DNA from: Oscillospiraceae bacterium
Lineage (GTDB): Bacteria; Bacillota; Clostridia; Oscillospirales; CAG-272
Reading direction: 5' to 3'
Length of the DNA: 64,000 nucleotides
Assembly: GCA_015063685.1 (NCBI GenBank)
Contig: SVTR01000008.1
Span: forward strand, 1,451 to 65,450
This document shows, piece after piece, positions 11,527 to 60,421 of the stretch; position 1 is the stretch's first letter, and each line of letters opens with the position of its first letter. The translations under genes and the position numbers were made by a program. The notes below the pieces were generated by a model. The model saw nothing but the letters and a program-made list of their open reading frames with translations, was not told the origin of the DNA and did no database searches.

Positions 11527-12612
11527 ATGTCCAAGTCCATCTTCGAAATTGATCAGAATTTAGCCGTTGAAACGGTGGCCAATCTCCCCGTTCAGTTTGT
11601 CAACGTCCTTGACGCGCCCTTCAACCTCTACGGTCTCTGCGACCCCCACGGCGGCGGAGCCTTCCACCGCATCCCCCAGGAGGTGGCCGACGCCACCAAC
11701 GAGGGGGTGAAGTTTCTCAACCTCCACACCTCGGGCGGCCGCGTGCGCTTTAAGACCGATTCCCCCCACCTGGCGGTGAAGGTCAAGCTCTCGGGTGTGG
11801 GCATGATGCCCCATATGACTCTCGTGGGTACGGCAGGAATTGACGTATATCTTGGCTACGACGGCGAGTATCGCTACTACGGCTCCTGCTTGACCGAGAT
11901 GGGTAACGACGCCGCCATCAAGATGACCGAGAATAAGGGGTATACCAACATGGTCTGGCTCCCCGCAGAAGGGATGCAGGACGTCCTCCTGAACCTTCCC
12001 CTCTACGGCGGGATCGACGAGCTGTGGCTGGGACTAGCCCCAGGCTCCAAGATAGAACCCGCCGCTCCCTACCGTGACCTGCTTCCCACGGTCTACTATG
12101 GCTCCTCCATCACCCAAGGGGGATGTGCCTCCCGCCCCGGCAATCATTATCCAAACATCCTTTCTCGCAAATACAACGTGGACTTTCGCAACCTGGGCTT
12201 CTCGGGGAGCGCCCGCGGTGAGCAGGCCATATCCGACTACATCGCAAGCCAACCCATGTCGGCCTTCGTCTACGCCTATGACCACAACGCCCCCACCGTG
12301 GAGCATCTGGCCGCCACCCATGAGCCTATGTACCTGAATATCCGCGCCACCCATCCCGACACCCCCGTCGTCTTCATCACTCGCCCCGGCATCCGCTACA
12401 ACGCCGAGGAAAGAGCCCGCCGCGAGGTGGTCAAGGCCACCTATGAGAACGCTAAGGCCAGAGGGGAGAACGTCTACTTCGTGGACGGCGAGACTATCTT
12501 CGCCATCTTCGGCGGCGACGGCGGCAGCGTGGACGGATGCCACCCCAACGATCTGGGCTTTGCCTGCGTGGCGGCGGCCCTCGACCCCATTTTTGCGGAG
12601 ATTTACGGATAA
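11527..12612 (+). CDS. SGNH/GDSL-type hydrolase (esterase-like)
   Basis: Carries YYGSSITQGGCASRPG (block I Ser), GFSGSARGE, and DGCHPNDLGF (block V D..H). The start is trimmed to the ATG at 11527 after AAGGAGG. Confidence 0.75.
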   Translation: MSKSIFEIDQNLAVETVANLPVQFVNVLDAPFNLYGLCDPHGGGAFHRIPQEVADATNEGVKFLNLHTSGGRVRFKTDSPHLAVKVKLSGVGMMPHMTLVGTAGIDVYLGYDGEYRYYGSCLTEMGNDAAIKMTENKGYTNMVWLPAEGMQDVLLNLPLYGGIDELWLGLAPGSKIEPAAPYRDLLPTVYYGSSITQGGCASRPGNHYPNILSRKYNVDFRNLGFSGSARGEQAISDYIASQPMSAFVYAYDHNAPTVEHLAATHEPMYLNIRATHPDTPVVFITRPGIRYNAEERARREVVKATYENAKARGENVYFVDGETIFAIFGGDGGSVDGCHPNDLGFACVAAALDPIFAEIYG

Positions 12613-12829
12613 ATTGTAGTTTATCGGTCGGTTCGTTCCCCGCTCCCCGACCTTCCCCTTTGGGGAAGGTGGCGCGCCCGTAGGGCGTGACGGATGAGGT
12701 GATAACGCTGGCACATCAAGATGTTTTGGCCCATACGTCTTACCTCATCCACCACCTTCGGTGGTCCCCCTTCCCCAAAGGGGAAGGTTCGGAAACGTTG
12801 GTTGCAACCCACCGATAAACCCAAATTTG
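12610..12829. repeat. Palindromic element, P family, bounded by junction-motif variants
   Basis: The ends are TAAATTGTAGTTTATCGGT and ACCGATAAACCCAAATTT. Inside are two CCTTCCCCTTTGGGGAAGG-type palindromes and a GGATGAGGT/ACCTCATCC pair. The first 3 nt are the upstream gene's stop codon. Confidence 0.85.
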
Positions 12830-12852
12830 AACACAAATGAAAGGATACACCC

Positions 12853-13674
12853 ATGACCCACCAGAATCCCCCCATCCAAATTCTCAAGGACAAAGAGCTG
12901 TACGTCTTCGACATGGACGGCACCATTTACCTGGGAAAGATCGTCTTCGATTTCGCTATCCGTTTCATTGAGAATCTCCGCGCCGCGGGCAAGCGGGTGC
13001 TGTTCTTCACCAACAACGCCTCCCGCTCCACCGACGTCTACCTGGAAAAGCTCACCCGCCTGGGCTTCTCCCCCACGGCGGACGAGATCATGTCCTCCGC
13101 CGACGTGACGGTGGCCTATCTCAACACCTATCATAAGGATCAGACCGTCTATCTCATCGGCACGAAGCAGCTGGAGTCCCAGTTCCGCGCGGGGGGCATC
13201 CGTCTGGCCACGGGGAAGGAGGACTCCGTGGATGTGGTGGTGTCCAGCTTTGATACCGAGCTGACCTACGAAAAGCTGGACGACGGTTGCCGTCTCATCC
13301 GAAACGGGGCTACCTACCTATGCACTCACCCCGATTTCAATTGCCCCACCGACACGGGCTTCATGCCCGACAGCGGTGCCATCGCCGCCCTCATCACCGC
13401 CTCCACCGGCGTCATCCCCCGTTACCTGGGCAAGCCTTACCCCGAGGTGGTGGAGATGATCGAGCAGGTCACGGGAATCTCCCGCGACAAGACCTGCATT
13501 TTCGGCGACCGCCTCTACACCGACATCGCCTTGGGCGCGAAGAACGGCGTCACCTCCATCCTCGTTCTGACGGGGGAGGGAACCTATGAGGAGGCTATGG
13601 AGCTGTCCGAGGGGGAGAAGCCCGCCTTCATCTTCCCGTCGCTCGCGGAAGTGGACGAGTCCATCTTCTGCTGA
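12853..13674 (+). CDS. HAD-superfamily hydrolase, subfamily IIA (NagD-like)
   Basis: Carries FDMDGTIY, FFTNNASRS, and C-terminal GDRLYTDI. Confidence 0.8.
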   Translation: MTHQNPPIQILKDKELYVFDMDGTIYLGKIVFDFAIRFIENLRAAGKRVLFFTNNASRSTDVYLEKLTRLGFSPTADEIMSSADVTVAYLNTYHKDQTVYLIGTKQLESQFRAGGIRLATGKEDSVDVVVSSFDTELTYEKLDDGCRLIRNGATYLCTHPDFNCPTDTGFMPDSGAIAALITASTGVIPRYLGKPYPEVVEMIEQVTGISRDKTCIFGDRLYTDIALGAKNGVTSILVLTGEGTYEEAMELSEGEKPAFIFPSLAEVDESIFC

Positions 13675-16074: not shown

Positions 16075-16857
16075 ATGTACAACAACCATAAAGTTGTCAT
16101 CTGTGGTGTAAATACGGCAAACCTCAAGGTACTGACCGAGAAAGAAAAACAGGACCTCATGGTGCGTGTCAGAGGAGGAGATACCCAAGCCCGTCAGGAA
16201 ATGATCTGCGGGAATCTGCGACTGGTGCTGTCTTTGGTACAGCGGTTTGCAGGACGAAAAGAAAATCTGGATGACCTCTTTCAGGTGGGTTGCATCGGCC
16301 TTGTGAAGGCGGTTGACAATTTTGACATCACGAAAGAGGTCATGTTTTCCACTTACGCCGTTCCAATGATCATCGGAGAGATGCGGCGCTATCTCAGAGA
16401 TAACGCCACCGTGCGGATCAGTCGCTCGGTTCGAGATCTGGCTTACCGTGCCCTCCAGGTGAGAGAGGAGCTTTCCGCCGAGCTGTCCCGCGACCCCACC
16501 CCCGACGAGATCGCCGAAAGACTGGGGGTGCCCCGACAGCGGGTGGTGGCGGCTATGGATGCCATCGTGGAGCCCATCTCTCTCTACGAGCCCGTGTTCA
16601 GCGAGAACGGGGATTCCCTCTATGTCATCGATCAACTCTCGGACACCTCACGCGACGCCAGCGACGAGTCCTGGCTGGAGAACATCGCCCTCCGCGAGGC
16701 GGTGGCGACCCTGTCTCCTCGAGAACAGAATATTATCAAGCTCCGCTATTTCAAGGATAAGACCCAGATGGAGATCGCCTCTGAGATCGGCATCTCGCAG
16801 GCCCAGGTGTCGAGGATTGAAAAGGCGGCGCTGCAGAAGCTTAAAAAACAGTTGTAA
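16075..16857 (+). CDS. sigG: Sporulation sigma factor SigG
   Basis: Near-colinear with B. subtilis SigG: KVVICGVNT, GNLRLVLSLVQRF, DDLFQVGCIGLVKAVDNFD, FSTYAVPMIIGEMRRYLRDN, GISQAQVSRIEKAAL. The ATG at 16075 has AGGAG upstream. Confidence 0.9.
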   Translation: MYNNHKVVICGVNTANLKVLTEKEKQDLMVRVRGGDTQARQEMICGNLRLVLSLVQRFAGRKENLDDLFQVGCIGLVKAVDNFDITKEVMFSTYAVPMIIGEMRRYLRDNATVRISRSVRDLAYRALQVREELSAELSRDPTPDEIAERLGVPRQRVVAAMDAIVEPISLYEPVFSENGDSLYVIDQLSDTSRDASDESWLENIALREAVATLSPREQNIIKLRYFKDKTQMEIASEIGISQAQVSRIEKAALQKLKKQL

Positions 16858-17054
16858 ATGGTTGTTTAGCGTGGCGACCGCCGCATTTTTGACCTTCCCC
16901 TTTGGGGAAGGGGGACCATCCGAAGGATGGTGGATGAGGTAAAAAACTATGGCCGCAATATGTTTTCGGTTTTAGCCTCACCCACCGCAAGCGGTTCCCC
17001 CTCCCCAAAGGGGAGGGTATAGGGCGCGTGTCTCCTCCGCTAAATAACAATTTA
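16855..17054. repeat. Palindromic element, P family, bounded by junction-motif variants
   Basis: The ends are TAAATGGTTGTTTAGCG and CGCTAAATAACAATTTA. The interior is related to 12610-12829. It starts on the sigG TAA stop codon. Confidence 0.85.
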
Positions 17055-17099
17055 TACCCAAACATACAGAAAGGCTCGGCTTGTGCCGTGTACATATCC

Positions 17100-17945
17100 A
17101 TGAAAACGTATCATCTTACGAAAGAATTTATCACCGCCACCACGAACGCCATGCGTGAGGCTGGACGTATCATGCTCTCCGCCCATCGGGACGGTCAGGG
17201 TGGCGAGGTTACCTCTGACGAGATCAACGACAAGGACACCGCCCATGCCCAGGTCAACTTCGTTACGGTTTACGATAAAAAGGTTCAAGCCCTGCTGATC
17301 GAAAAATTACATATAGCCCTCCCAGAGGCCAAGTTTATGGCCGAGGAGGACGGTGCCGATCAGACCGACCCCACCGAAGGACTGTGTTTTGTCATCGACC
17401 CCATCGACGGTACCGCCAATTTTATTCGCGACTTGGCTTGCTCGGCCATATCTGTGGCGCTTTTGTCTGAGGGTATGCCCGTTTTCGGCGCGGTCTACCA
17501 GCCCTATGCCGACGAGTTGTTCCTGGCTGTCCGAGGGCAGGGAACGGTCTGCTACCGCCATGGTAATCCTCCCGAGAGGGTCACCGTCAGCACCCGCCCT
17601 TTGAAGGAGGCCATTGCCCTCCTCGGCACCTCCCCTTACTATAAAGACGAGTTGGGGGAAACTACCGTATCTCTCTTCAAAAATTGTCTCTACCATGCCG
17701 CCGACGTCCGCAGAAGCGGCTCTGCCGCCTATGATTTCTGCAATATTGCCATGGGGCGCACCGACCTTTTCTGCGAAGCCCGACTGTCCCCTTGGGACTA
17801 CGCCGCAGGCTGTCTGATTGTCACCGAGGCGGGTGGACAGGTCACTTGCCTTGATGGCACCCCTCTGCGCTTTGATCAGCCCTGCTCCGTCCTCGCGGCA
17901 GGATGCGGATGCTATGACGAGGCGGTGGAGATATTTCAACGGTAA
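17100..17945 (+). CDS. Inositol monophosphatase family protein
   Basis: Carries FMAEEDG, VIDPIDGTANF and WDYAAGCLIVTEAGG. The start is trimmed to the ATG at 17100. Confidence 0.85.
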   Translation: MKTYHLTKEFITATTNAMREAGRIMLSAHRDGQGGEVTSDEINDKDTAHAQVNFVTVYDKKVQALLIEKLHIALPEAKFMAEEDGADQTDPTEGLCFVIDPIDGTANFIRDLACSAISVALLSEGMPVFGAVYQPYADELFLAVRGQGTVCYRHGNPPERVTVSTRPLKEAIALLGTSPYYKDELGETTVSLFKNCLYHAADVRRSGSAAYDFCNIAMGRTDLFCEARLSPWDYAAGCLIVTEAGGQVTCLDGTPLRFDQPCSVLAAGCGCYDEAVEIFQR

Positions 17946-18234
17946 ATTGTTGTTTAGCGTTGTTGTGCCCCGCCTTGAAACAGTCATCCTGAGCGAGGGC
18001 GATGCCCGAGTCGAAGGATCCCACAGGAAGCAAAACCTTTTTATGACAATGGTTTTTTACAGGTATAAAGAGATCCTTCGGCGCGGCCAGCGGCCTTGTT
18101 CAGGATGACCGCGTTGGTCAGTAAACGCCCATAAACAACAATTTATCAGCCTAACCATCCATCGCGTGATGTATCTAGCACAGGATGCACTACCCCGAGC
18201 CAGAGCCCCACCGCAGGTGGTAAACAACAATTTA
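17943..18234. repeat. Composite element: junction motif - H cassette - junction motif - Xa arm - junction motif
   Basis: Exact TAAATTGTTGTTTA at 17943, and exact TAAACAACAATTTA at 18132 and 18221. Nearly identical to 29722-29999 except that the inner cassette is inverted. Confidence 0.9.
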
Positions 18235-18278: not shown

Positions 18279-19010
18279 ATGAAAACCATTCTCCAATGGC
18301 TCCGCCGTGAGCGCGAGGATATGAAGCTCCTCCTCCGCTCCATCCCCGCTACCGTGGTGACCCTTTTCGTGGTCTCGGTCATCTGCATGAACCTGTTGGC
18401 CAATAAGACCCTCCTCCAACTGGATTGGATCGCCCTGGACGGCGGTATCCTCATCTCCTGGCTGTCCTTCATGTGCATGGACATCATCACTAAGCACTTT
18501 GGCCCGAGGGCATCCAACCGCATCTCCCTTTTGGCCTGCGGCATCAACCTGCTCACCTGCGCCATCTTTTTTGTCGCCGCCGCCATCCCCTCAAACGCGG
18601 AGGACTACACCGCCTTCAACGGCATCTTCGGCGGCACCTGGTTCATCCTTTTGGGCAGTACCGTGGCCTTCCTTGCCTCGGCCGTCATCAATAATACCCT
18701 CAACTGGATGATTGGCAAGGGCTTTAAAAAGAACCCTGACGGCAAGCTGGCCTACGCCATGCGAACATACGTCTCCACCTTCATCGGCCAGTTTTTGGAT
18801 AATTTCATTTTCTCTGTCATTGTCTTCGTCATCTTCGCCCCCATCTTCTGGAACGGCTTCTGCTGGACGGTGCTCCAATGCGCCATGTGCGCCCTGACGG
18901 GAGCCGCGGCCGAGCTTGTCATGGAAATCCTCTTTTCCCCCATCGGCTACCGTATGGTGCAAAAGTGGAAGCAGGAGCGGGTGGGACAGGCGTATTTGGA
19001 TAACAGATAA
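18279..19010 (+). CDS. Queuosine-precursor transporter family (YhhQ/DUF165, VUT family)
   Basis: A multi-pass membrane protein with the pattern NLLANKTLLQLDWIALDGGILISWLSFMCMDIITKHFG typical of YhhQ-like proteins. Confidence 0.7.
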   Translation: MKTILQWLRREREDMKLLLRSIPATVVTLFVVSVICMNLLANKTLLQLDWIALDGGILISWLSFMCMDIITKHFGPRASNRISLLACGINLLTCAIFFVAAAIPSNAEDYTAFNGIFGGTWFILLGSTVAFLASAVINNTLNWMIGKGFKKNPDGKLAYAMRTYVSTFIGQFLDNFIFSVIVFVIFAPIFWNGFCWTVLQCAMCALTGAAAELVMEILFSPIGYRMVQKWKQERVGQAYLDNR

Positions 19011-19160
19011 ATTTTTGTTTATCGAAGAGATACAAGATACGGCCGAGCAAGCTCGGCAGATACAAGATACAAGATAGGGAACTTTTGAAAAAATATGTCG
19101 CCGTATGGGTTTAGGAATATCTTGTATCTCGTATCTCGTATCTCGTATCTCCGTATCTCT
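19008..19160. repeat. K-family element: junction-motif variant, GATACAA heptamer runs, GCCGAGCAAGCTCGGC hairpin, inverted heptamer run
   Basis: TAAATTTTTGTTTATCG lies on the stop codon at 19008. The hairpin is at 19042-19057. The inverted run TATCTTGTATCTCGTATCTCGTATCTCGTATCTCCGTATCTC lies at 19117-19160. Confidence 0.8.
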
Positions 19161-19860: not shown

Positions 19861-19878
19861 AGAAAAGTTATAGGTAAT

Positions 19879-24386: not shown

Positions 24387-25238
24387 ATGTTGAAACGTGT
24401 GATCACAGGCATCGTTGCCTTTTTGGTTTTTCTGCCTTTTATCATATTTTCAGATACGGTGGCGTTGCCCATCGGTCTTGGCTTGTGTGCCGCCATTGCC
24501 ATGTGGGAGGCCTTCCATTGTGTAGGACTTCACAAAAACCTTTGGCTGTCCCTGCCCTTGTACCCTATAGCCGCAGCCGCACCCATTTGTATGAGATGTC
24601 TGGGCATTGACACCACTCTGACCATGGCGGTTGTGGCAATCTTCGTGCTGATGCTGTATACATATGCGGTGTGCGTTTTCTCCAAGGGCAAGGTGGATAT
24701 TTCCGCGGCCTGCACCGCTTTGGTAACGTGTCTGTATACTATGGGTGGCTTCGCTGCCATCATTTACCTGCACGATTTCCATGCGGGCGGCAGATTCCTT
24801 TATCTGCTCACCTTCATCGGCGCGTGGATCACCGATATTTTTGCCTATTTTTCCGGTCGTCTCTTTGGAAAGCACAAGCTGATCCCTGAGATCAGCCCCA
24901 AGAAGACGGTGGAGGGTAGTATCGGCGGCATTTTGTTCTGCGTATTGGCCTTCTTGGGCTTCACTTATATCTACAATACCTGGCTGGTGGGCTTCTTGCC
25001 CGATGCGACACTCCCTGAGGTGACTGTCACTCTTCCCTATGTACTCATGGCGGTGGTGGGATTCGTGGTGTCCATTGTCTCCCAGATAGGTGATCTTTCC
25101 ATGTCGGCAATCAAGCGGCACTATGGCGTGAAAGACTTCGGCAAGCTTTTCCCCGGTCACGGCGGTGTTTTGGATCGCTTTGACTCTGTGCTGGCGGTGG
25201 CCATCATTCTGGCCTGTGCCTTGGGGATGCTACTGTAA
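24387..25238 (+). CDS. cdsA: Phosphatidate cytidylyltransferase
   Basis: A multi-TM protein with the C-terminal signature SQIGDLSMSAIKRHYGVKDFGKLFPGHGGVLDRFDS. Confidence 0.9.
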   Translation: MLKRVITGIVAFLVFLPFIIFSDTVALPIGLGLCAAIAMWEAFHCVGLHKNLWLSLPLYPIAAAAPICMRCLGIDTTLTMAVVAIFVLMLYTYAVCVFSKGKVDISAACTALVTCLYTMGGFAAIIYLHDFHAGGRFLYLLTFIGAWITDIFAYFSGRLFGKHKLIPEISPKKTVEGSIGGILFCVLAFLGFTYIYNTWLVGFLPDATLPEVTVTLPYVLMAVVGFVVSIVSQIGDLSMSAIKRHYGVKDFGKLFPGHGGVLDRFDSVLAVAIILACALGMLL

Positions 25239-25268
25239 AAGTTGCTTGCCGGAGGTTAACACAAACCT

Positions 25269-25361
25269 GTAGGGGTGACCCTGTGTGGTCGCCCGCACGG
25301 CAGGAATCTATATTCAATAAGAATTTATTGCCAACGGACGACCACATAGGGTCGCCCCTGT
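25269..25361. repeat. REPIN-like inverted doublet (G family)
   Basis: GTAGGGGTGACCctgtgtGGTCGCCC and GGACGACCacatagGGTCGCCCCTG are separated by an AT-rich ~40-nt spacer. Confidence 0.8.
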
Positions 25362-25419
25362 CCTAATTCAATTTTCCGCTAAACAAACTCTCCACACCAA
25401 AACGAAAGGAGCCTGCGTC

Positions 25420-26661: not shown

Positions 26662-26713
26662 GCCTGATCCTTCACCGTCTTGTTTTCATTTTTTGCATTG
26701 AAAGGAGCGCACC

Positions 26714-29630: not shown

Positions 29631-30016
29631 TAAATTGTTGTTTAGCGGGCAGTGCCCGCAGCCAACGCTCGGGAATGTTCAACCCATGTGAACTGCATCC
29701 CGCGATGGGCAGTTAGGCAGGTAAATTGTTGTTTATGGGCGTTTACTGACCAACGCGGTCATCCTGAGCAAGGCCGCTGGCCGCGCCGAAGGATCTCTTT
29801 ATACCTGTAAAAAACCATTGTCATAAAAAGGTTTTGCTTTCTGTGGGATCCTTCGACTCGGGCATCGCCCTCGCTCAGGATGACTGTTTCAAGGCGGGGC
29901 ACAACAACGCTAAACAACAATTTATCAGCCTAACCATCCATCGCGTGATGTATCTAGCATAGGATGCACTACCCCGAGCCAGAGCCCCACCGCAGGTGGC
30001 CGGCAAACACAATTTG
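29631..30016. repeat. Complete composite element: motif - Xb arm - motif - H cassette - motif - Xa arm - degenerate motif
   Basis: Exact motifs at 29631 and 29722 (forward) and 29911 (reverse), with degenerate CAAACACAATTTG at 30004. It fills the spacer between the lipoprotein gene and dxr. Confidence 0.9.
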
Positions 30017-30044
30017 CGTTCCAATTCAAATAAAAGAGGAAATT

Positions 30045-32338: not shown

Positions 32339-32340
32339 CC

Positions 32341-32367: not shown

Positions 32368-32434
32368 GGGATACAGCTTGTCGTATAATGAGGTAAATTG
32401 TTTTCTCCCGACATAAAATCAAGAGGAGGCTTCT

Positions 32435-33517
32435 ATGAATTACAACGCCATTCGCCGTGCGACGCGACCTGTCAAAGTTGGCCGCGTGGGCATTGGTGGG
32501 ACAAATCCCATCGTCATTCAATCCATGACCAATACCGACACTCACGACCTGTCGGCCACTATAGAGCAGATCAAGGCTTTGGCTTCGGCGGGGTGTGATA
32601 TTGTCCGTCTCACCGTGCCCGATCTGGAGGCCGCTGAGACCATTCGTGCCATTAAGGAGCAGGGACTCACCATCCCTCTGGTGGCAGATATCCATTTTAA
32701 CCACAAGATTGCCTTGCGTTGTGCCGAGTACGGGGTGGACAAAATCCGCATCAACCCCGGCAACATCGGGGCGGACGAGTACGTAAAGGAAGTGGCCGAC
32801 GCTTGTCGTCAGCGGAACATTCCCATCCGCATTGGTGTCAACAGCGGATCTCTTGAAAAACATATTTTGGCCAAGTACGGCGCACCTACCCCCGAAGCGC
32901 TGTGCGAAAGCGCACTCTATCACGCCGCCCTTTTGGAAAAGTTCGATTTTGAGGATACGGTGATCTCCATCAAGGCCTCCACCGTGCCGAGCATGATCAA
33001 AGCCAACCGTCTGCTGGCTGAGAGGTGCGCTTATCCTATTCACCTGGGCGTCACCGAGGCGGGAGGCGCCGAGATGGGACTGGTCAAGTCAGCCGTGGGC
33101 ATCGGTGCCATGCTTTGCGAAGGCATTGGTGACACCTTCCGCGTGTCCCTCACCGCATCTCCCGTGAAGGAGATCGACGCCGCCAGAAAGATCCTCAATG
33201 CCGTGGGCGTGGAGGGACAATGCGGCTTGCAGATCGTGTCCTGTCCCACCTGCGGACGCACTAAGATCGACCTGATTGACCTGCACACCCGCTTTGAGGC
33301 GGCGGTAAAGGCCGAGGGGCTTATGGATCTGCCTGTGAAGGTGGCTCTCATGGGGTGCATTGTCAACGGCCCAGGTGAGGCACGGGAGGCCGACATTGGT
33401 ATCGCCGGAGGCAAGGGTGAGGCTTTGCTTATCGCCCGGGGCGAGGTGCTTTGCAAGATCCGTGAGGATGAGATCATCCCCACGCTGATTGGGAAGCTTA
33501 AAGAAATGAAAGGTTAA
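32435..33517 (+). CDS. ispG: 4-hydroxy-3-methylbut-2-en-1-yl diphosphate synthase
   Basis: Carries VGGTNPIVIQSMTNT, RINPGNIG and SCPTCGRT...GCIVNGPGE. Confidence 0.93.
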   Translation: MNYNAIRRATRPVKVGRVGIGGTNPIVIQSMTNTDTHDLSATIEQIKALASAGCDIVRLTVPDLEAAETIRAIKEQGLTIPLVADIHFNHKIALRCAEYGVDKIRINPGNIGADEYVKEVADACRQRNIPIRIGVNSGSLEKHILAKYGAPTPEALCESALYHAALLEKFDFEDTVISIKASTVPSMIKANRLLAERCAYPIHLGVTEAGGAEMGLVKSAVGIGAMLCEGIGDTFRVSLTASPVKEIDAARKILNAVGVEGQCGLQIVSCPTCGRTKIDLIDLHTRFEAAVKAEGLMDLPVKVALMGCIVNGPGEAREADIGIAGGKGEALLIARGEVLCKIREDEIIPTLIGKLKEMKG

Positions 33518-34321
33518 ATTGTTGTTTACCACCTGCGGTGGGGCTTTGGCTCGGGGGAGTGCATCCCGTGTGAAACTCATACCGCAATGGGCAGTTAGGC
33601 AGATAAATTGTTGTTTATGTTCTTTTCCACTTTCTTTCCTCGGCGAAAGAAAGTGGAGTAAAGAGCGCCGCCAAAGACAGAACCTACGGTTCTCCTCTGG
33701 ACTCCAACTCCCTCGTGACGCACGCCGCTCCCCAATGGGGGAGTGGAGCGGCTATCGCGTGTTTTGTGTCAGCCAACGCCGATAGCCTGCCCCTGCGGCG
33801 GAGCGCCTTGAGGCTCATACCTCGCTGTTTAGAAAGCGTTAGTTGATTTGAAAAAATTCAATATTGAAAAATAGCATTGAATCCATAGTTCTCACGGCGA
33901 GAGGTGATTGTTTGATTGGAGAACAACAACATTTGTCCATTCGCCATCAGAACTGTAGCTTCGCCACCTGACTCTGACCATCCCTCTGTTCTACCAACAG
34001 AAACATATCAATTGGACTTTTGATGAGCCCCGAGGCGCTCCGCCGTGGGGGCGGGCCACCGCTGGTGGCTGACAAAATACACGCGATAGCAGACCACCTC
34101 TGTGGTCTGCGTGCGTCACGAGGGAGTTGGGTTCTTAGGGAGAACCGTAGGTTCTGCACTAAGCGGCGCTCTTTTGGAACTTTTCTGCCGCCGTGGGCAG
34201 AAAAGTGGAAAGAATGCTAAACAACAATTTACCTGCCCAACTACCCAGCGCGATATGTGGTGCGTACAGAATGCACTACCCCCAGCGATGGTAGCCAGCA
34301 CGGCCGGCAAATGACAATTTA
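33515..34321. repeat. 807-bp nested composite palindrome filling the ispG-polC spacer
   Basis: Forward motifs at 33515 and 33604, reverse at 34218, degenerate at 34308. The X arms are 33529-33603 and 34232-34307. The core consists of two ~200-bp inverted arms (33618-33820 and 34022-34217) around an AT-rich ~200-bp centre. Confidence 0.9.
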
Positions 34322-52993: not shown

Positions 52994-55789
52994 TTATTCG
53001 TCTTTCTTCTTGACGTTCTTCTTGGCCAACGTCCAAGCAGCGGCGATGGTCAACAGACCCACAGAGGAAGAAATGACAGAACCGCAGCCTTGATCGGATA
53101 CAGTTTGGGTCTCTTCGCTTGTTGCGGCTTCAGTGCCGGTGGGAGCGATAGTACCATCGGTTGCACCTTCCGTAGCGGATTCGGTTACGGCTTCAACCTT
53201 GGTTTCAGCATCGGTGACAGCCTCGGTTTCCGCTTCCGTTTCTACAATATCCTCGGTGACAACCTCAGCTTCAGCATCGGTGGCAGCCTCGGTATCCTCA
53301 GAGGGCTCAGTCTCGGGCTCTGCGTCGGGGGTAGTCTCGGGCTCGGTTTCGGTATCGGTGACGTTACCGGTAGCGTTTGCCTCGGTGGAGATATAGCTGT
53401 ACTTGAAGCGTGCGCCGGGAGCTACGTCGCCGGAGATGTAGAAGTCCATGATATCGCCGGAGAACTTGGTGTTGTCACCCTCGTCGTGGACGTTGTCGGT
53501 CCAAGCGAAGTTGATGGTGTAGTCGTTGCCGGAAAGACCCAGATCGGACTTGGCCACCTTCACGGTCATGTAGCGGCCGTCCACCTTGTACTCGCAGTCA
53601 GCTACCTTTTCGGAAGCGTAACCCTCGCCGGTGAACTTCTCCAGCACAACGGTGCTCTCGGAAGCGGCGGACTTGTTGATGACATATTCAAAGGTCTCCC
53701 AGCCCTGATTGGCCTGGTCGGAGTCGATGTAGAGGGTCATCCACAGGTTGTCGGTATAGGGGGTGATGTCCTCGGCACACTCCACGTGGAAGTAGACGTA
53801 CTCGTCATCGCGGGCGATCTGCGCGCCGATGATATCATTACGACCGGAGGTTTCGGTGTAGTGGAGAGAACCGTAGCCGTCGGCGTCACGATCCTCAGTG
53901 TTGCCGATGTAGGCGGCGTAGTAGGGTTCAACGGATGCCCATTGATCCTGACCCGCGTTCAGGTCGATGGTGGCGTTCAGGCTGGGGGTAGGGATGGGAC
54001 TCACACCCTTGTACTTGCGGACGTAGTTGACGAGGAGGTAGTAGTAGTGATCCTTCAGCGCGCCCTTGGTGGGCTCGATGTCTCGGGAATACTCGTCATT
54101 GAACTGATCGGGGAAGGCGTTCTCACTGCCGCCCCATTCCTCATGGCGGCCTGCGGTCCACTCGTTCCAGCCCGTGATGAAGATCACCCGAGGATCTACA
54201 TCCAGGGCATAGTCGAACTGCTCCGAGAAGTTGTAGCCCCACTTGGAAGCATCGGCACCCTCGGTGAGGTAGCGGTTCTCAAACTTGGAGCTGTAGGAAC
54301 GTCCGATGACGAACTCGCCCTCGTTCATGGCGGCGATGTTGTGGGTTTTGTAGTTGTGGTTGACGGCTACGCCCACAGTCATTTGCTCAATGTTACCGCG
54401 CTTCAGATCTCCCTCTCGCACGGCGTAAAGAGCCTGGGGATAGGTGGACAGCCAGCCCCATTGTTTGGGACTTGTACCTTCCACCAGGTAGCCGGGCTGA
54501 CCCGGGCGCCAAGTGAAGAAGCGGTTGATCTCCTTGCCGAGGTTGGTGGTGGAGGGAATGTTGTTGGGGTAAGCCATCAGCATGGGCTTGCCGTCCCAGT
54601 AGAACCACAGGTTTTGGTACTTGTCTCTGCGGTAAATGTCCTGATAGATGGCCTCGATCTGCTCTTTGGAGCCGTCTGTGGGGCCGAAGGGCAGGAGGAA
54701 GGATACCTTGGGGACGTCCACGGCACCGTTGATCTGCGCGTCGCTCCAGGTCTCGTACAGAGGGATGTAGCTGGTGCGCCATGTGAAGTTGCCGTTGGTG
54801 TTGTCGGTGAAGATGGTGTCCACGCCTGCGTTGGCGAGTAGCTCGGCCTGCTTGCGCAGCACCCACGCATCGTTGGTTTTATAGTAGCCGTAAATGGGCT
54901 CATTCCAGAAGTAAGCTGTGCCCGAGGTAGGCCAGGCGGGATGGTCGTAGTCGTTCTTTGCGTCGGGATGCTCCTTGATAAAATCGTTGATGTTGAGGGG
55001 CTGGTTGCCGCCCAGATCGGCGTGCCAGGTCCAGTAGAACATGGCCACGGTCTTGTCGTCCTTGACTCCGCCCACGTCCTCGTAGGTGAGGGAGGTGCGG
55101 CCGAGACCGTCGGTAAATACCCAGGTGTCGGGCATGACCTTGTGGGTGTTCAGCAGGCTGCCCTCGGGGATAACGTACTCCTCGGGAGCGGTGTGATTGC
55201 CGTCAATGGCTGCAGAAACACTGGTCATCTCCAAAAAGGGTACCTTGGGGGTCTTTGTAAAGGAGACGTTGACCTCCCAGTCGAACTGGGATTCCACACC
55301 ACCCTCGTATACGTAGCCGTGGGCGGTGGCTGGGGACATCTGCCATACGCCTACCTGACCATCGACGTCCTTGATGACCAGCAGATACTCTCCTGCGGGC
55401 TGTGCGTCAAAGGTGAGGGCATTGTGGGCGTTGTCCACGAGGGGCTCGAATCGCTTGTCCGCGATGGGCTCGCCTGCGATGGTGGTCTCGTAGTCGGTGT
55501 TCCATTTGTAGAACGCCAAGGTAGCAGCGGAATCCTTCGTAGACCAGGTGGGCATACAGACAGTCACCTTGTTGAAGGGGGCGCCGTAGGACAGACGCAA
55601 ACCCATGCTGGAGCCTTCGCCCACCTGCTTGGGGGTGTGGGAGTTGATGGCGGAGGCCTCAAAGGCACCGATGGTCGCTGCCTTGTCGGAGGCGATGTTA
55701 TCCTCGCCTGCCGCGGTGAAGGGAACGGCGGTGATAAGCAGTATCAGGGCGAGGATCAGGGGGAGAATGCGAATACCAAAACGTTTCAT
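52994..55789 (-). CDS. Secreted, C-terminally anchored glycoside-hydrolase-like protein (paralog 2)
   Basis: Colinear with the 49971-52787 product (same motifs, for example IFITGWNEWTA and FPDQFNDEYSRDIEPTKGALKDHYYY). It has a signal peptide, a TE-rich stalk, QGCGS, a TM helix and a basic tail. Confidence 0.8.
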   Translation of the reverse strand: MKRFGIRILPLILALILLITAVPFTAAGEDNIASDKAATIGAFEASAINSHTPKQVGEGSSMGLRLSYGAPFNKVTVCMPTWSTKDSAATLAFYKWNTDYETTIAGEPIADKRFEPLVDNAHNALTFDAQPAGEYLLVIKDVDGQVGVWQMSPATAHGYVYEGGVESQFDWEVNVSFTKTPKVPFLEMTSVSAAIDGNHTAPEEYVIPEGSLLNTHKVMPDTWVFTDGLGRTSLTYEDVGGVKDDKTVAMFYWTWHADLGGNQPLNINDFIKEHPDAKNDYDHPAWPTSGTAYFWNEPIYGYYKTNDAWVLRKQAELLANAGVDTIFTDNTNGNFTWRTSYIPLYETWSDAQINGAVDVPKVSFLLPFGPTDGSKEQIEAIYQDIYRRDKYQNLWFYWDGKPMLMAYPNNIPSTTNLGKEINRFFTWRPGQPGYLVEGTSPKQWGWLSTYPQALYAVREGDLKRGNIEQMTVGVAVNHNYKTHNIAAMNEGEFVIGRSYSSKFENRYLTEGADASKWGYNFSEQFDYALDVDPRVIFITGWNEWTAGRHEEWGGSENAFPDQFNDEYSRDIEPTKGALKDHYYYLLVNYVRKYKGVSPIPTPSLNATIDLNAGQDQWASVEPYYAAYIGNTEDRDADGYGSLHYTETSGRNDIIGAQIARDDEYVYFHVECAEDITPYTDNLWMTLYIDSDQANQGWETFEYVINKSAASESTVVLEKFTGEGYASEKVADCEYKVDGRYMTVKVAKSDLGLSGNDYTINFAWTDNVHDEGDNTKFSGDIMDFYISGDVAPGARFKYSYISTEANATGNVTDTETEPETTPDAEPETEPSEDTEAATDAEAEVVTEDIVETEAETEAVTDAETKVEAVTESATEGATDGTIAPTGTEAATSEETQTVSDQGCGSVISSSVGLLTIAAAWTLAKKNVKKKDE

Positions 55790-55814
55790 GATGTTCTCCT
55801 TATTTTATTGAATT

Positions 55815-58694
55815 TCAGAAGGAATTCAGGATCTCCTGCAAGCTGTCCGCGATGACCTCATCGGCCACTTTCTTTTTCATAAAGATCTTGTTGCCCATGG
55901 GATTTTCGACGAAGCGGGTGGCGTCGGGCAGATCGGGGATCTCGGCGTAAAATTCCAGGTCACCGGGGACGTCGAGGTCATAGAGATCACAGATACCCAA
56001 CGCGGCGAACTGCACGGCGGTAAGGTCGTAGGAGGCGTTCTGACCCTTGACGGCACCCTCCCAGTTCCAATCCTTGGTGTAGAGATGATAGGACATGGGC
56101 AAGGGGTCGGCCATGATGGTCTCGGGATTGGTGATATGGCCGTAGCCTGTCTTGACGTTCACACCGATGTGGAAGTCGGAGAGATAAATGGCAGTAGGCC
56201 AGCTTGCAAAGACCTTCTCAGCGGACTTGTAGTCGCTGACCACGTTGCATTCTCGACCCTGGGGCAGGGTGGCGGCCATGCTCACCAAGGCGTAGACCTT
56301 GGCCTTTACCAGCTCCATGCCGGTGAGGGGGCTGATGTCGTCAGCGGGGCTATCCAGGAGGGCGGCCAGATTGTTGAACATACCGATGGAGATGACCATC
56401 ACCTCGCCGTCACGGGCGGCGGCGAGACGCTTGCGGTAGAAGGTGATCTCGTCGTCCACGGGGAGGGTGCCGTTTCTGTAGGCCTCGGAGTGGGCCTCGG
56501 CTACGGCAACGTTGTACTTACAATGCTCGGCGCTATCCATAAAGCCCTCGCCGTGCCATTGCCCCAGGGGAGGAGTCTCCATGCCGCAACGGCGGCAGAC
56601 AGCGTCGATGACACCGTTGCCCCCCTTATTGGAGGTGCAATTGCAAATACCGCCAATGGTGAAGTTGTACTTTTTGGCGTAATAGATGAGGACGGCCAAA
56701 GCGCCTACGTCATCACAATCTGGGCCGATATCGGTGTCCAGAAGGACGGTGCGAGGGACTTTGCACAGGGCTTCAAAGGCTTTGATTTTTTCCATGGCGA
56801 GAGTTTCCTTTCTTCTTTGGGATTCTTTGTTTTTAAGATTTTGCAGAGTGACAGCAGGGCAGGGAGCGACCCGCATCGTTTTCCCTGGGGACGGATGGTC
56901 GGTGTGCGGGAGAGATGCTTGCTCTCTTTGATAAGTGTGACCAATAGGCAACGCGCCCCGTGGAGGTATCCCCTCCGTTATAAACCCGAAGGGGAGAGGC
57001 TCTTCCAATAAAGCCTTGTGGGCTTCAAACAGTCCGGCGCACACGGCTGCGTGGGGGGTGTTAAGGTGGGATAAAAGCGCCAAGGTATTGCGGCCGTTCA
57101 GGCTGTGAACCGCGGTTTGTCCGTCGCGTGCTGCTGATGCCGCCACTTGGAGAAATCCGCGAATGTCTTCCCATGAGGGATTGGGCGCAAGGGTCATAAG
57201 ACTCAGCGGACGGTCGGGAGTAGCAAGGGTGTTTGCTGCGGGACAAGGTGAAACCTCAGTATACGCCGCCAGGGAAAGGATCACGGAGATGTCCTTGGAT
57301 GCCTCGGCGGTGCTCTTGAAAAGAATTTCGGGATAGGTCAGGGGAATGCCCAGCTCGGTGGCGGCGCGGTACAGACCGCAGAGAGCAGACAAAAGCAAGG
57401 GGGCGTCTGCGGTTCCGTCAACGTATAACACGGGAGACATTCTGATCCGATGATGAGGAATGCCTACGGCGGCCATCTCGCAGGCCAAAGCCAAAAGGCT
57501 TTGGGCGGTGGGGGTGAAGCCGTCAGAGGCGCGTCCCTTCAGATACAGCATAGAGGATGCGACGGTGCATCCCGTATGTTCTACGGTTTCGGGTAGTGAG
57601 ATGGGGGTGTGCTTGAGGGGGATACTGCCAAGAGGCGCGGGAACGGCCAATTCATAAGAGCGGGTGTCCGGGGGGAAATTTCGGATGACCGATAACGAAA
57701 GATGCACCGACACGCCTCCCTGCGACACCACCGTGAGATATGGTTTTTTTGTGACTGTTCCCAAAAGCACGGGGACAAAGCCGATCTGTGACAGCTCCGT
57801 CATCAGCGCGGTTTGCATAGAGGCGGGAACACAGAACAGGGCGTAAGCCGAGTGGCGAGGCGCGGGGGTTTCCCAGGCTTCTATGTACCTCGTGATTTGG
57901 CTATCCGAGGGAGCGAGGGCTCTGTCGTCGGAAAGCAACGTGTCCAACATGACGGATAGACCGCACTCGCCGCACATATCGAGGGCTGTTTGCAGCACCG
58001 AGTCATGGCTGACGGCACGGAAGGAGTGCAGATGAGATACCAGCGTATGCTCGCTCAAAAACGCGGCGAGGGCTTCATACTCGGTAGGCGGCAGGAGGAT
58101 GATCACGTCATCTGCGCGGGGTGCGGCATGGATGATCTCCTGTCTGCGGCTATCCTTGATCCAGAGCTGCCGAGAGGCACCTTGGTCAAAATGCAGGGCG
58201 GCATACGGACGATAACCTTGGGTAAGGGCTTGAGGGGCGCTGGTGTCGGTGACCAGACGGCAACGCTCAATCCCCCGCTCATACTCCCCTTGACGGATAT
58301 AGGCATCGGTCAGGGAAAGGATATTCGAAAGTGAGCAAAGCTCGGGGGTGGGGGCCTTCACGTCGTCCATGCCGGCCATGATATCAGCCCAGGTGTCCAT
58401 GAGCATTTCGCTGTCGGTATAGATCTCGCCGGGGGCGATCCGCTCCGCCAAGGGGACACGGCTATGCAAAAAGTCCAGGAGGCGCAGCTCTCCACGGGTG
58501 GGATTTCTGGCTTCTCCGCTGAAAAAATAGGCCTGCAGCATCCGATACTGCGACGGGCTCAGTTGGATGCCCAGAGATTCGTTGATCTGAATGAAGTTCA
58601 TCTCGCCGGCCAAGGCGAAGGAGGGGATCTGTAGCTGGTCCTCCGGTATCATATAGGTCGGTGGGACGAAGGGGGGGAATTGAGAATAGTTCAT
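55815..58694 (-). CDS. Fusion ORF: degenerate PurL/PurM-like domain (~630 aa) plus a nucleoside-hydrolase-like domain (~326 aa)
   Basis: N-terminal LGIQLSPSQYRMLQAYFFSGEARNPTRGELRLLDFLHS resembles the PurL N-terminus but lacks SEHC. The C-terminus carries VLLDTDIGPDCDDVGAL (an IUNH-like Asp cluster). An in-frame internal ATG at 56795 is preceded by AAAGGAA. Confidence 0.7.
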   Translation of the reverse strand: MNYSQFPPFVPPTYMIPEDQLQIPSFALAGEMNFIQINESLGIQLSPSQYRMLQAYFFSGEARNPTRGELRLLDFLHSRVPLAERIAPGEIYTDSEMLMDTWADIMAGMDDVKAPTPELCSLSNILSLTDAYIRQGEYERGIERCRLVTDTSAPQALTQGYRPYAALHFDQGASRQLWIKDSRRQEIIHAAPRADDVIILLPPTEYEALAAFLSEHTLVSHLHSFRAVSHDSVLQTALDMCGECGLSVMLDTLLSDDRALAPSDSQITRYIEAWETPAPRHSAYALFCVPASMQTALMTELSQIGFVPVLLGTVTKKPYLTVVSQGGVSVHLSLSVIRNFPPDTRSYELAVPAPLGSIPLKHTPISLPETVEHTGCTVASSMLYLKGRASDGFTPTAQSLLALACEMAAVGIPHHRIRMSPVLYVDGTADAPLLLSALCGLYRAATELGIPLTYPEILFKSTAEASKDISVILSLAAYTEVSPCPAANTLATPDRPLSLMTLAPNPSWEDIRGFLQVAASAARDGQTAVHSLNGRNTLALLSHLNTPHAAVCAGLFEAHKALLEEPLPFGFITEGIPPRGALPIGHTYQREQASLPHTDHPSPGKTMRVAPCPAVTLQNLKNKESQRRKETLAMEKIKAFEALCKVPRTVLLDTDIGPDCDDVGALAVLIYYAKKYNFTIGGICNCTSNKGGNGVIDAVCRRCGMETPPLGQWHGEGFMDSAEHCKYNVAVAEAHSEAYRNGTLPVDDEITFYRKRLAAARDGEVMVISIGMFNNLAALLDSPADDISPLTGMELVKAKVYALVSMAATLPQGRECNVVSDYKSAEKVFASWPTAIYLSDFHIGVNVKTGYGHITNPETIMADPLPMSYHLYTKDWNWEGAVKGQNASYDLTAVQFAALGICDLYDLDVPGDLEFYAEIPDLPDATRFVENPMGNKIFMKKKVADEVIADSLQEILNSF

Positions 58695-60067
58695 GAAAGC
58701 TCCTTGACCTGTGATTTCGTCGTTTCTGTGGGGTCAGTGAGAATCCGGCCAATGAGAACACCGTCGCCGATCTCCATGGGCACAACGATGACCTCTTGCC
58801 CTCGGACGTCCCACGACGCGGGGGCGGTCACCTCCATGAAATCGGGGGTGTGGCCGTGGTAAAGGGCCGTGTCGGCACGGTAGGTCTCGAACAGGACGGT
58901 CAACGGCCGCCCCATTGCGACTTCCCGGGATAGGAGGGCTTGGCAGGTGTCTCTTGAGACATCGTTCAAAAGGCGGACACGGCGGTGCTTGATCTCCTCG
59001 GGAACCTGCTCCTTCATGGTAGCGGCAGGCGTGCCCACCCGCTTGGAGTAGGGAAAGGCGTGGATATGAAGAAATCCGGCGCGACGGGCAAAGGCCAGCG
59101 TCTCGGCAAATTCTTCCTCGGTCTCCCCGGGAAATCCTGCGATGATGTCGGTGGTGAATTTGACCGACGGCAGACGGGTACGCAGTCTCTCCATGGCCCG
59201 CTCGGCCTGAGCGACATTATATTTTCGTTTCATGCGTGCCAAGGTGGCGGAGCAACCGCTTTGCATGGAGAGATGAAAATGAGGGGCAACACAGGGCAGA
59301 GCGGCTACCGTATCGGCAAAATCCTCGGTGATGACCGTGGGATCCAGAGAACCGAGACGGATGCGGCCCACGTTGGGAATATCTGCTACGGCACGGAGCA
59401 GGGCGGCCAGGGTGTATTCCTTGCCCAAATCCTTGCCCCAGGCACCTGTTTCAATACCTGTGAGCACCACCTCACGGCAACCGTCGTGGGTGAGTCTCGC
59501 AACCTCGCGAACCACGTCGCAAAGGGGCTTGGAGCGCTCACGGCCGCGGGCGGCGGGAATAGTGCAATAGGTGCATCTTGACTCGCAACCGTCCTGTATC
59601 TTGACGTAGGCACGGGTGCGGTCAAAGTGGGTGATGACCATGGGCTCAAAGGGGGCATCCTCAAGGGAGGGGACGTCGATCACGGGCTCGGCGGGCTTGC
59701 CGTTTTCCATAAAGGAAAGGGCGTATCGGACGGCTTTCAGCTTTTCCTTGTTACCAACCACGGCGTCAACGCCGCTGATGTCGGCCATGAGTTTGGCGTC
59801 GGTTTCTGCGGAGCACCCTGTGACGATCACCACGGCTTTAGGGTTCTGCTTGATCAATCGGCGCACTGCCTGCCGGGATTTCCGATCCGATTCGGCGGTG
59901 ACGGTGCAGGAATTGACGATGTAGAGGTCACAGATCTCGTGGGGAGGAAGGATAATAAAGCCCGCGTCAGCCAAAGTCTCGGCCAAAGCTTCGGATTCAT
60001 ATTGGTTGACCTTACACCCCAGGGTCAGTATGGCGGCGGTGGGGGCAGGGGAGTGGGTAGATAACAT
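58691..60067 (-). CDS. mtaB: tRNA threonylcarbamoyladenosine methylthiotransferase MtaB
   Basis: Carries LTLGCKVNQYESE, NSCTVT, the radical-SAM CESRCTYCTIP and a C-terminal TRAM-like region. The ATG at 60067 follows AAGGAG. Confidence 0.88.
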   Translation of the reverse strand: MLSTHSPAPTAAILTLGCKVNQYESEALAETLADAGFIILPPHEICDLYIVNSCTVTAESDRKSRQAVRRLIKQNPKAVVIVTGCSAETDAKLMADISGVDAVVGNKEKLKAVRYALSFMENGKPAEPVIDVPSLEDAPFEPMVITHFDRTRAYVKIQDGCESRCTYCTIPAARGRERSKPLCDVVREVARLTHDGCREVVLTGIETGAWGKDLGKEYTLAALLRAVADIPNVGRIRLGSLDPTVITEDFADTVAALPCVAPHFHLSMQSGCSATLARMKRKYNVAQAERAMERLRTRLPSVKFTTDIIAGFPGETEEEFAETLAFARRAGFLHIHAFPYSKRVGTPAATMKEQVPEEIKHRRVRLLNDVSRDTCQALLSREVAMGRPLTVLFETYRADTALYHGHTPDFMEVTAPASWDVRGQEVIVVPMEIGDGVLIGRILTDPTETTKSQVKELS

Positions 60068-60085
60068 AGGGACTCCTTGGGAATG

Positions 60086-60421
60086 TAAATTGTTGTTTAC
60101 CACCTGCGGTGGGGCTTTGGCTCGGGGTAGTACATCCTGTGCCTAATGCATCACACGATAGGGGATAGGCAGGTAAATTGTTGTTTACGGGCTTCTGACC
60201 AACGTGGTCGTAGGGGCGAACTGTGTTCGCCCGTAATAAAAAGTATATTGATAACAAGGTTTTTTGGGGAACGGCGGGCGAACGCAGTTCGCCCCTACGG
60301 GTTTTCATTAATCCTCCGCCAAACAACAATTTAACTGACCAACTACCCATCGCGGTATGCGGCCTGCATGGGTTGAACATCCCCGAGCGTTGGCTGCCGC
60401 ACGGCGGCAAACAACAATTTA
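60086..60421. repeat. Complete composite element: motif - Xa arm - motif - G-family doublet - motif - Xb arm - motif
   Basis: Exact TAAATTGTTGTTTA at 60086 and 60174, and CAAACAACAATTTA at 60320 and 60408. The core doublet GTAGGGGCGAACtgtGTTCGCCC ... GGGCGAACgcaGTTCGCCCCTAC spans 60210-60298. Confidence 0.9.

Follow-up and report, generated by a model that had tools for sequence, protein, structure and literature searches.

The 64,000-nucleotide (nt) stretch of contig SVTR01000008.1 analysed here (the window) carries the genes of a spore-forming Clostridia bacterium, and its intergenic spacers hold repeat elements delimited by a single 14-mer, TAAATTGTTGTTTA. The elements constitute a real mobile or recombining mosaic repeat system of the kind represented by repetitive extragenic palindromes (REPs), bacterial interspersed mosaic elements (BIMEs), and Neisseria intergenic mosaic elements (NIMEs), with an unusually clean junction motif. 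Eleven exact copies of the 14-mer were found (17943, 29631, 29722, 33515, 33604, 60086, and 60174 on the forward strand; 18132, 18221, 29911, and 34218 on the reverse strand), and 0 of 100 shuffled sequences gave any match. When up to two mismatches were allowed, the window contained 17 copies against 0.13 expected; this search added 12610, 16855, and 19008 (forward) and 17041, 60320, and 60408 (reverse), and more degenerate copies at 12816, 30004, and 34308 were seen by reading the sequence. All the exact and near copies listed in an earlier, sequence-only reading of the window were recovered in this way, and its statement that the motif exceeds chance was confirmed. The G+C content of the window is 52–60%, and the 14-mer stands out because it is AT-rich. 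Every copy in the window is intergenic or overlaps a stop codon. Just outside the motif G(G/A) is favoured, and the start of the polar unit can be written as 5'-(GG)TAAATTGTTGTTTA. The complementary ends of the 14-mer are limited to TAAA/TTTA, and the motif itself is not a hairpin. The window has roughly one locus every 7 kb, and parts of the related metagenome-assembled genome (MAG) RGIG8736 have one every 2–4 kb.

On either side of a central hairpin doublet, the 14-mer with its X arm (72–78 nt) occurs zero to three times; the units on the left are arranged head to tail and those on the right are their mirror image, so that nested palindromes result. The forward copies lay to the left of the reverse copies in all of 90 clusters but one, and the sole apparent exception consisted of two neighbouring loci merged by the 900-nt clustering threshold. 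The orientation rule of the sequence-only reading holds at every locus of the window and in the clusters from related loci; the layout was seen again in 89 loci of related ruminant-gut Clostridia/Oscillospiraceae MAGs. Each module opens with a GC-rich hairpin 0–25 nt inside its 14-mer, which makes the unit polar, with the motif preceding the hairpin body. The module sizes measured in the window (X, 74–77 nt; H, 175 nt; G, 132 nt; P, 172 nt; core, 600 nt) bear out those given previously.

Several families of centres were distinguished. The G centres (132–143 nt) comprise two REPs, each with 5' GTAG and GC-rich stems showing compensatory differences; the G profile had 91 matches in the clade sequence examined, all of them as doublets. 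Examples of the tags (GTAGGGGCGAAC..GTTCGCCC) are found at 60210 and 60298, at 7470 and 7559, at approximately 25270–25357, and in many MAG copies. The 5' GT[AG]G tag that defines REPs is present in the G modules only, and the X, H, P, and E modules and the 600-nt core do not have it. The H centre is a doublet of GTCATCC...GGATC hairpins, and the P centre is composed of CCTTCCCC/GGGGAAGG-type hairpins. Further families are E, a 321-nt centre, and a minimal centre of 25 nt, the last forming the element 14-mer, 25 nt, reverse 14-mer (L049_7952; the prefix L denotes a related locus). In the nested-palindrome core (600–660 nt), the arms are conserved, and the central ~200 nt are poorly conserved and non-coding. 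Folded as single-stranded DNA, the composite at locus I forms one long hairpin (−91.7 kcal/mol, z = −10.5), and the 5' hairpin of the X arm (P1) occurs in at least six fully paired stem variants. At the gathering threshold, the whole window had no Rfam match; at a permissive threshold, the only match to a module was whalefall-1 on a P hairpin (21.7 bits versus a cutoff of 37), so the proposed Rfam search assigns none of the modules to a structured-RNA family.

The elements of the window are listed in Table 1. Loci E and G had been overlooked by the sequence-only reading, as had two hairpin doublets without 14-mers, one of G type (GTAG-REP, 7469–7560) and one of H type (10335–10453). These two doublets indicate that the hairpin families exist outside the 14-mer shell too. 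Each of the 14-mers at locus E has five mismatches, yet its REP hairpins are intact, from which it follows that the motif is not maintained by selection at each locus; the counterpart of this element in L032 has intact 14-mers.

Table 1. Repeat elements of the window and their modules (+, forward; −, reverse strand)
Locus	Feature	Position	Strand	Remarks
A	Whole locus	12610..12829		P-type palindrome between a 14-mer and a reverse 14-mer
A	14-mer	12610-12623	+	1 mismatch; TAA is the stop codon of a GDSL-lipase gene
A	P profile match	12649-12808		
A	Reverse 14-mer	12816-12829	−	Decayed, 4 mismatches
B	Whole locus	16855..17054		14-mer, P-type palindrome, reverse 14-mer
B	14-mer	16855-16868	+	1 mismatch; TAA is the stop codon of a sigma-factor gene
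B	P palindrome	16869-17040		172 nt
B	Reverse 14-mer	17041-17054	−	1 mismatch
C	Whole locus	17943..18234		14-mer, H, reverse 14-mer, X', reverse 14-mer
C	14-mer	17943-17956	+	TAA is the stop codon of the suhB-like gene
C	H hairpin doublet	17957-18131		
C	Reverse 14-mer	18132-18145	−	
C	X' arm	18146-18220		
C	Outer reverse 14-mer	18221-18234	−	
D	Solo 14-mer	19008..19021	+	1 mismatch; TAA is the stop codon of Vut
E	Whole locus	25236..25393		Decayed G element; GTAG-REP doublet between decayed 14-mers
E	Decayed 14-mer	25236-25249	+	TAAAAGTTGCTTGC; TAA is the stop codon of cdsA
E	Decayed reverse 14-mer	25380-25393	−	TAAACAAACTCTCC
F	Whole locus	29631..30017		14-mer, X, 14-mer, H, reverse 14-mer, X', decayed reverse 14-mer
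F	Left arm	29631-29644; 29645-29721; 29722-29735		14-mer; X (77 nt); 14-mer
F	H doublet	29736-29910		175 nt
F	Right arm	29911-29924; 29925-30003; 30004-30017		Reverse 14-mer; X'; decayed reverse 14-mer
G	Solo decayed 14-mer	32394..32407	+	TAAATTGTTTTCTC; in the rseP-ispG spacer
H	Whole locus	33515..34321		14-mer, X, 14-mer, core, reverse 14-mer, X', decayed reverse 14-mer
H	Left arm	33515-33528; 33529-33603; 33604-33617		14-mer (TAA is the stop codon of ispG); X; 14-mer
H	Nested palindrome core	33618-34217		600 nt
H	Right arm	34218-34231; 34232-34307; 34308-34321		Reverse 14-mer; X'; decayed reverse 14-mer
I	Whole locus	60086..60421		14-mer, X, 14-mer, G, reverse 14-mer, X', reverse 14-mer
I	Left arm	60086-60099; 60100-60173; 60174-60187		14-mer; X; 14-mer
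I	G centre	60188-60319		GTAG-REP doublet
I	Right arm	60320-60333; 60334-60407; 60408-60421		Reverse 14-mer (1 mismatch); X'; reverse 14-mer (1 mismatch)

The junctions were examined with 203 module pairs that were at least 93% identical inward of a 14-mer and had unrelated distal flanks. The per-position identity was approximately 1.0 from motif position 0 inward. Outside the motif it dropped to 0.61 (position −1) and 0.35 (position −2) and was near background (0.2–0.3) at most positions beyond, with position −8 remaining at 0.73. The same centre adjoins many X variants or unique DNA, and the reverse is also true. One 351-nt composite (14-mer, X, 14-mer, G, reverse 14-mer, X', reverse 14-mer) was 98% identical at two loci of one MAG (L028:5218-5568 and L058:5201-5551), and the similarity ends at the outer 14-mers, beyond which the two loci have unrelated flanks; no direct repeat or target duplication was found outside the motif in L028 or L058. 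These comparisons show the 14-mer to be the exact boundary at which copying, replacement, and deletion took place.

The spacers occupied in the window differ among its relatives. In the outgroup L073, the gene order with spacer lengths is cdsA-16 nt-dxr-55-rseP-17-ispG-about 100-polC, without elements, and in the outgroup L160, the spacers along sigma-Vut-adh-...-cdsA-dxr-rseP-ispG-polC are 12–134 nt long. The rseP-ispG spacer holds a full element in L032 (RGIG8736), namely 14-mer, X, 14-mer, 321-nt centre, reverse 14-mer, X', and reverse 14-mer, and only the decayed solo 14-mer in the window. In the suhB-Vut spacer, the flanks and the outer 14-mers are kept in the window, L155, and L156, and the centres differ: H with X' in the window, E in L155 (Vut 96%), and P in L156 (Vut 93%). 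At the site orthologous to locus B, L155 carries a G centre and L159 carries no module. At the stop codon of Vut, the window has the solo 14-mer followed by a GATACAA-heptamer/hairpin element of a different repeat family, L155 has TAAATTG and the GATACAA element, L156 has a 14-mer and E, and L157 has the series 14-mer, X, 14-mer, X, 14-mer, G, reverse 14-mer; no module is present at this site in L158 and L159. The variation of orthologous spacers, which the sequence-only reading had left to be compared, is therefore found in relatives both as presence or absence and as complete module replacement. Genes are involved as well. The suhB-like gene (17082-17945), bounded by direct 14-mers, is absent from L156, L158, and L159, and the three-gene block 25420-29619, likewise bounded by direct 14-mers, is absent from L032 and L160; both cases fit gain or loss by recombination at the 14-mer. 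Modules are copied, swapped, and lost at the 14-mer much faster than the neighbouring genes change.

The distribution of the motif was assessed by a scan of one genome per species with the pattern 14-mer, N60-90, 14-mer. Of the 60 loci returned, almost all came from four or five related ruminant-gut Clostridia/Oscillospiraceae MAGs (RGIG8736 with ~40 loci, RGIG3848, RGIG8715, SIG684, and one other), and many of the loci lay about 125 nt from a contig end. These loci contained 230 motif copies with no more than one mismatch in 449 kb. A scan of viral contigs yielded zero motif copies. Among 80 metagenome loci with relatives of ispG, the full motif-bounded element was found only in the 93%-identical one, and those with an identity of 83% or lower had at most single matches with two mismatches. 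The exact-motif system is therefore limited to about one genus. The more distant L159 and L160 (Vut 84%) have a G-type doublet between diverged versions of the motif (AAAATTGGGGTTTA ... TAAACCAAAATTTA), which hints at an older origin.

The gene context was analysed at 112 element ends. At 15 of them, the TAA of the motif terminates an open reading frame (ORF) of 80 codons or more, some of these ORFs being possibly spurious, and it provides the stop of the upstream gene at five loci of the window (A, B, C, D, and H). An outward-pointing gene start lies within 150 nt at 47 of the 112 ends, in 26 of these at 16–36 nt outside the motif. The elements sit within an operon that is compact in outgroups. 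Promoter and terminator scans of the elements gave no consistent signal, and no terminator T-run was detected. As the elements are squeezed in between the stop codon of one gene and the ribosome-binding site of the next, and have no T-run, they are probably transcribed through and tolerated. A perfect TATAAT hexamer was observed 4 nt upstream of the 14-mer of locus G (window 32380-32410), and this 14-mer could lie at the 5' end of the ispG transcript. The scan for tRNA and tmRNA genes found none.

Genes for an enzyme acting on the repeats were sought in the window and in the clade loci. The Pfam matches of the window included no transposase, RAYT, or site-specific recombinase, in agreement with the sequence-only reading, and the recombination proteins found were RuvA and RuvB only. 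An HUH/Y-motif scan and tblastn with an E. coli RAYT gave nothing in the window and 0.45 Mb of clade loci, and a GIY-YIG motif scan of the clade loci gave no plausible candidate and no Ssn-like gene. An all-against-all comparison of ORFs for a multicopy transposase returned only spurious ORFs through the 600-nt core. No forward...reverse pair of 14-mers encloses an ORF in the sequence examined, and the centre of the 600-nt core is non-coding; the earlier statement that the modules encode no credible protein stands. Two proteins of the window without Pfam matches were considered as nucleases and rejected: the 143-aa protein (60584-61015) looks like a lipoprotein, and the 413-aa protein (25420-26661) is glycoside-hydrolase-like. 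In L156:4096-4600 and L163:1150-1620, the P arms GGAGAGGG.. and ..CCCTCTC flank a DUF559 (PF04480) gene, and the same P hairpin motifs stand on both sides of a DUF559 gene in L166 and L167 (950-1680). Arm order in the gene-less P centres matches that of these DUF559-enclosing palindromes, which are not bounded by 14-mers. Metagenomes contain thousands of close homologues of the DUF559 protein, many of them on contigs that are very short. The DUF559 endonuclease is a possible cognate nuclease of the P palindromes.

Taken together, we lean towards the view that these are lineage-specific, non-autonomous mosaic intergenic repeats, recombined at the 14-mer by a trans-acting enzyme encoded outside the window. 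The en bloc copying, the breaks at the motif, the turnover of the spacers, and the element-free outgroups speak for the non-autonomous mobile or recombining elements that the sequence-only reading had suggested. The comparisons show the 14-mer to be the point at which units are cut and joined, a reaction that this enzyme would carry out: whole composites reach new spacers as copies that end precisely at the outer 14-mers, single modules are replaced between fixed 14-mers, and DNA between directly repeated 14-mers, genes included, is gained or lost. The favoured type of enzyme is a hairpin-guided cut-and-rejoin activity on single-stranded DNA, putatively an HUH/RAYT protein or a small nuclease, because of the fixed polarity, the hairpin 0–25 nt inside the motif, the lack of a visible target duplication, and the GTAG-REP being the commonest centre. 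The centre families (G, REP-like; P, DUF559-associated; H; E) occur outside the 14-mer/X shell and are presumably older than it, and the clade-specific shell may have captured these older, broader hairpin families.

Several points weigh against this interpretation. Neither the window nor ~0.5 Mb of clade sequence yielded a RAYT, GIY-YIG, transposase, or multicopy ORF. The orthologues available had flanks too diverged to provide an empty/filled pair from which a target duplication or footprint could be read, and a TA duplication may be hidden inside the motif. The X arms alone fold only a little more stably than shuffles (z ~ −1 on both strands), which makes the single-strand evidence weak, and no specific X RNA is claimed for this reason; RNAalifold gave no consensus structure for the X arms, in part owing to a misalignment of P1. 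All the sequences come from short-read metagenome assemblies, which break at repeats and can join repeats chimerically. A contig from another sample (L152) encodes an identical 1482-aa PolC with recG upstream, versus ispG in the window, and the recG/ispG switch (L152:4476-5391 compared with window 33515-34383) falls inside the 600-nt core; this is either a strain rearrangement or an assembly chimera. The Vut-locus arrangement of the window recurs in contigs from at least eight samples.

An enzyme-free process could yield the same junction pattern. The GC-rich hairpins would stall replication, and the nascent strand would switch template between the AT-rich 14-mers, giving deletions and tandem X arrays in cis and module replacement in trans; RecA recombination between the longer repeats would add rearrangements, and concerted copying would keep the motif identical. 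The breakpoints at or within the 14-mer, the varying number of tandem X arms, the deletion or insertion of gene blocks between direct 14-mers, and the failure to find an enzyme gene in the clade sequence searched all agree with template switching, and the minimal element L049_7952 resembles the central deletion of a palindrome. However, the 351-nt composite with sharp ends in two unrelated spacers is hard to obtain by switching alone, 14 bases are a short homology for repeated switches in trans, and the strict polarity together with a near-perfect motif across species, while the X arms diverge, suggests recognition by a protein. We consider template switching unlikely.

About as doubtful is the proposal that the 14-mer is the core site of a dedicated site-specific recombination system inserting, exchanging, and deleting cassettes between copies of the motif, a dispersed integron-like system without an integrase or attC. 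Such a system may act on single-stranded DNA and would move mostly non-coding hairpin modules, and also the suhB and 25420-29619 blocks.

Somewhat less likely again are classical miniature inverted-repeat transposable elements (MITEs) moved by a DDE transposase encoded elsewhere. The 14-mer would then be the transposase-binding terminal inverted repeat, reiterated in long arms like the inverted-repeat/direct-repeat (IR/DR) ends of Tc1/mariner, any inverted pair of 14-mers could be mobilised, and the TA at each motif end would be a hidden TA target duplication. The small size of the elements, their perfect inverted-repeat ends of 14–16 nt, and the copying of whole composites en bloc are as expected. 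TA is always present at both ends, and insertion into the TA of a TAA/TAG stop would regenerate TAA, in keeping with the stop codons supplied by the motif at the element ends and window loci given above. On the other hand, no insertion sequence (IS) with these ends and no multicopy transposase ORF was found in 0.5 Mb, the inner copies are direct repeats separating independently assorting modules, the conservation of the motif extends 2 nt beyond the TA (GG/CC), and the replacement of centres between fixed ends is not predicted by whole-element cut-and-paste.

Host-selected RNA or DNA structures, i.e., long hairpins in operon transcripts serving, for example, RNase III processing or differential mRNA stability, are improbable. 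In this reading, the 14-mer would provide a stop codon at one end and, at the other, an unstructured A/C-rich leader upstream of the ribosome-binding site. The tight fit between genes (with gene starts 16–36 nt outside the motif at 26 of 112 ends and TAA used as a stop), the lack of a terminator T-run, the very stable whole-element fold, and the position inside an operon compact in outgroups agree with such structures, but copies decay, the content at the same site is wholly different between 93–96% relatives, close outgroups have no elements, and no Rfam family or conserved promoter or terminator was matched; tolerated selfish DNA accounts for these features better than a function tied to each locus would. 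For the alternative offered by the sequence-only reading, a structural system at the RNA or DNA level, an RNA role is possible, but the decay and rapid turnover of individual copies make it an unfavoured primary explanation.

Some neighbouring features of the window were also recorded. A second intergenic repeat family consists of GATACAA/AAGATAC heptamer runs flanking the hairpin GCCGAGCAAGCTCGGC, with partly inverted copies (window 19022-19140, 38830-38960, and 43570-43615; L160:19795-19835); the outgroup L160, without the 14-mer, has the heptamer run without this hairpin. The spacer between adh and the gene for a 545-aa protein (19876-19984) holds a palindrome of GTGAAGA-type heptamer runs around a hairpin, and in the outgroups L159/L160, the orthologous spacer is occupied instead by a REP doublet of G type whose junction motif has diverged. 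Five tandem units of ~198 nt (68–84% identical) occupy 622-1713 within the 1237-aa ORF 26-3739, which probably encodes a repeat-domain surface protein. Three tandem paralogous genes of ~930–960 aa without Pfam matches lie on the reverse strand at 49971-58694; two of them are ~75% identical in DNA over long stretches, and short GC-rich in-frame repeats occur near one end. The cumulative GC skew has its minimum near 29 kb, and the gene orientation changes from forward to reverse near 40 kb, so the region ~29000-40000 may be near the replication terminus or origin.

The assembly of mosaic intergenic repeats such as BIMEs and NIMEs is poorly understood, and in the present system the joint is a single, exactly conserved, polar 14-mer. 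As relatives show module replacement and the gain or loss of gene blocks at this 14-mer, the cut-and-join chemistry is directly testable. The elements fill a large share of the spacers and extend REP-like biology to an uncultured Clostridia lineage; such repeats are also a major reason why contigs break, and may be joined chimerically, in metagenome assemblies from the ruminant gut.

In the literature, the motif string brought up nothing but unrelated primers, a search for RAYT in Clostridia was unproductive, and no described counterpart of the 14-mer and X shell was found. The sequence-only reading had not recognised the motif or its modular, nested use; this judgement remains valid for the shell, and some of the modules are of known kinds, the G modules being GTAG-REP doublets like REPINs and the P modules DUF559 palindromes without the gene. 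Four other identities were rejected. A CRISPR-like array was ruled out as the units between motif copies are mutually homologous, and a Cheo/LexA box in the REP stem was ruled out by the wrong spacing. The 14-mer resembles the consensus for IHF binding, but Firmicutes are not known to have IHF. By eye, it is unlike the attC cores RYYYAAC / GTTRRRY. Integrons and attC sites are similar to the present system in the addition of units in fixed orientation, the gain or loss of site-bounded gene blocks, and folded single-strand sites, and differ from it in that no integrase gene is found in the window, most cassettes are non-coding, and the elements are dispersed rather than in one array.

MITEs and modular repeats of Gram-positive and other bacteria (pneumococcal BOX and RUP, Neisseria Correia elements, and Tc1/mariner IR/DR ends) resemble the elements described here in being small and non-coding, in their terminal inverted repeats and TA ends, in having internal modules that vary in number, as BOX does (boxA-boxB(n)-boxC), and in folding into long RNA hairpins. 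In the present elements, the terminal inverted repeats are 14–16 nt long and perfect, and the similarity between copies stops at their edge. The differences are that no cognate IS was found in the clade sequence searched, no target duplication is demonstrable, the end motif recurs at every internal junction, and the modules assort independently. E. coli BIMEs likewise combine REP hairpins in alternating orientation with other short motifs in a set order, and are transcribed in operon spacers; however, they are without a single junction motif, reiterated arms, or interchangeable hairpin families.

The likeness to REPs and REPINs lies in the G centres, with 5' GTAG, a GC-rich hairpin, and inverted doublets with a spacer (Di Nocera 2013, PMC3733652; Bertels and Rainey 2011, PMC3116915), and in the compensatory stem variants, high copy number, extragenic location, and repeat-supplied stop codons. 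REP dimers inside conserved longer palindromes have been reported in Anabaena and Halothiobacillus, as have REPs that supply stop codons (PMC3733652), so the general idea has precedent. The enclosing palindrome differs here in being made of a reiterated polar 14-mer and ~75-nt X arms, one shell encloses several unrelated hairpin families, and no RAYT gene was found in the window and clade loci searched. The host is of a Clostridia lineage, whereas 'Firmicutes' and 'Clostridi' are absent from the text of the REP survey (PMC3733652).

The closest analogue, in architecture only, is provided by the NIMEs, in which one short oriented repeat bounds varied modules in intergenic arrays and the repeats are associated with variable gene content nearby. 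In Neisseria, the dRS3/NTS repeat separates RS modules, and SsnA, a GIY-YIG single-strand nuclease, cuts NTS (PMC11893778; PMC1797815). The repeat there is recognised by a single-copy small nuclease, whereas no Ssn-like gene was seen in the clade loci here. The H modules did not match the published SRM pattern HGTCWY..RNCYNB, whose one match in the window fell inside a gene. The dRS3/NTS repeat is a hairpin of 20–28 nt, unlike the 14-mer, and the Neisseria arrays are not mirror-symmetric nested palindromes. The DUF559 gene within the P palindrome has a repeat-nuclease-repeat layout, like that of REPtrons and of NTS-ssnA-NTS.

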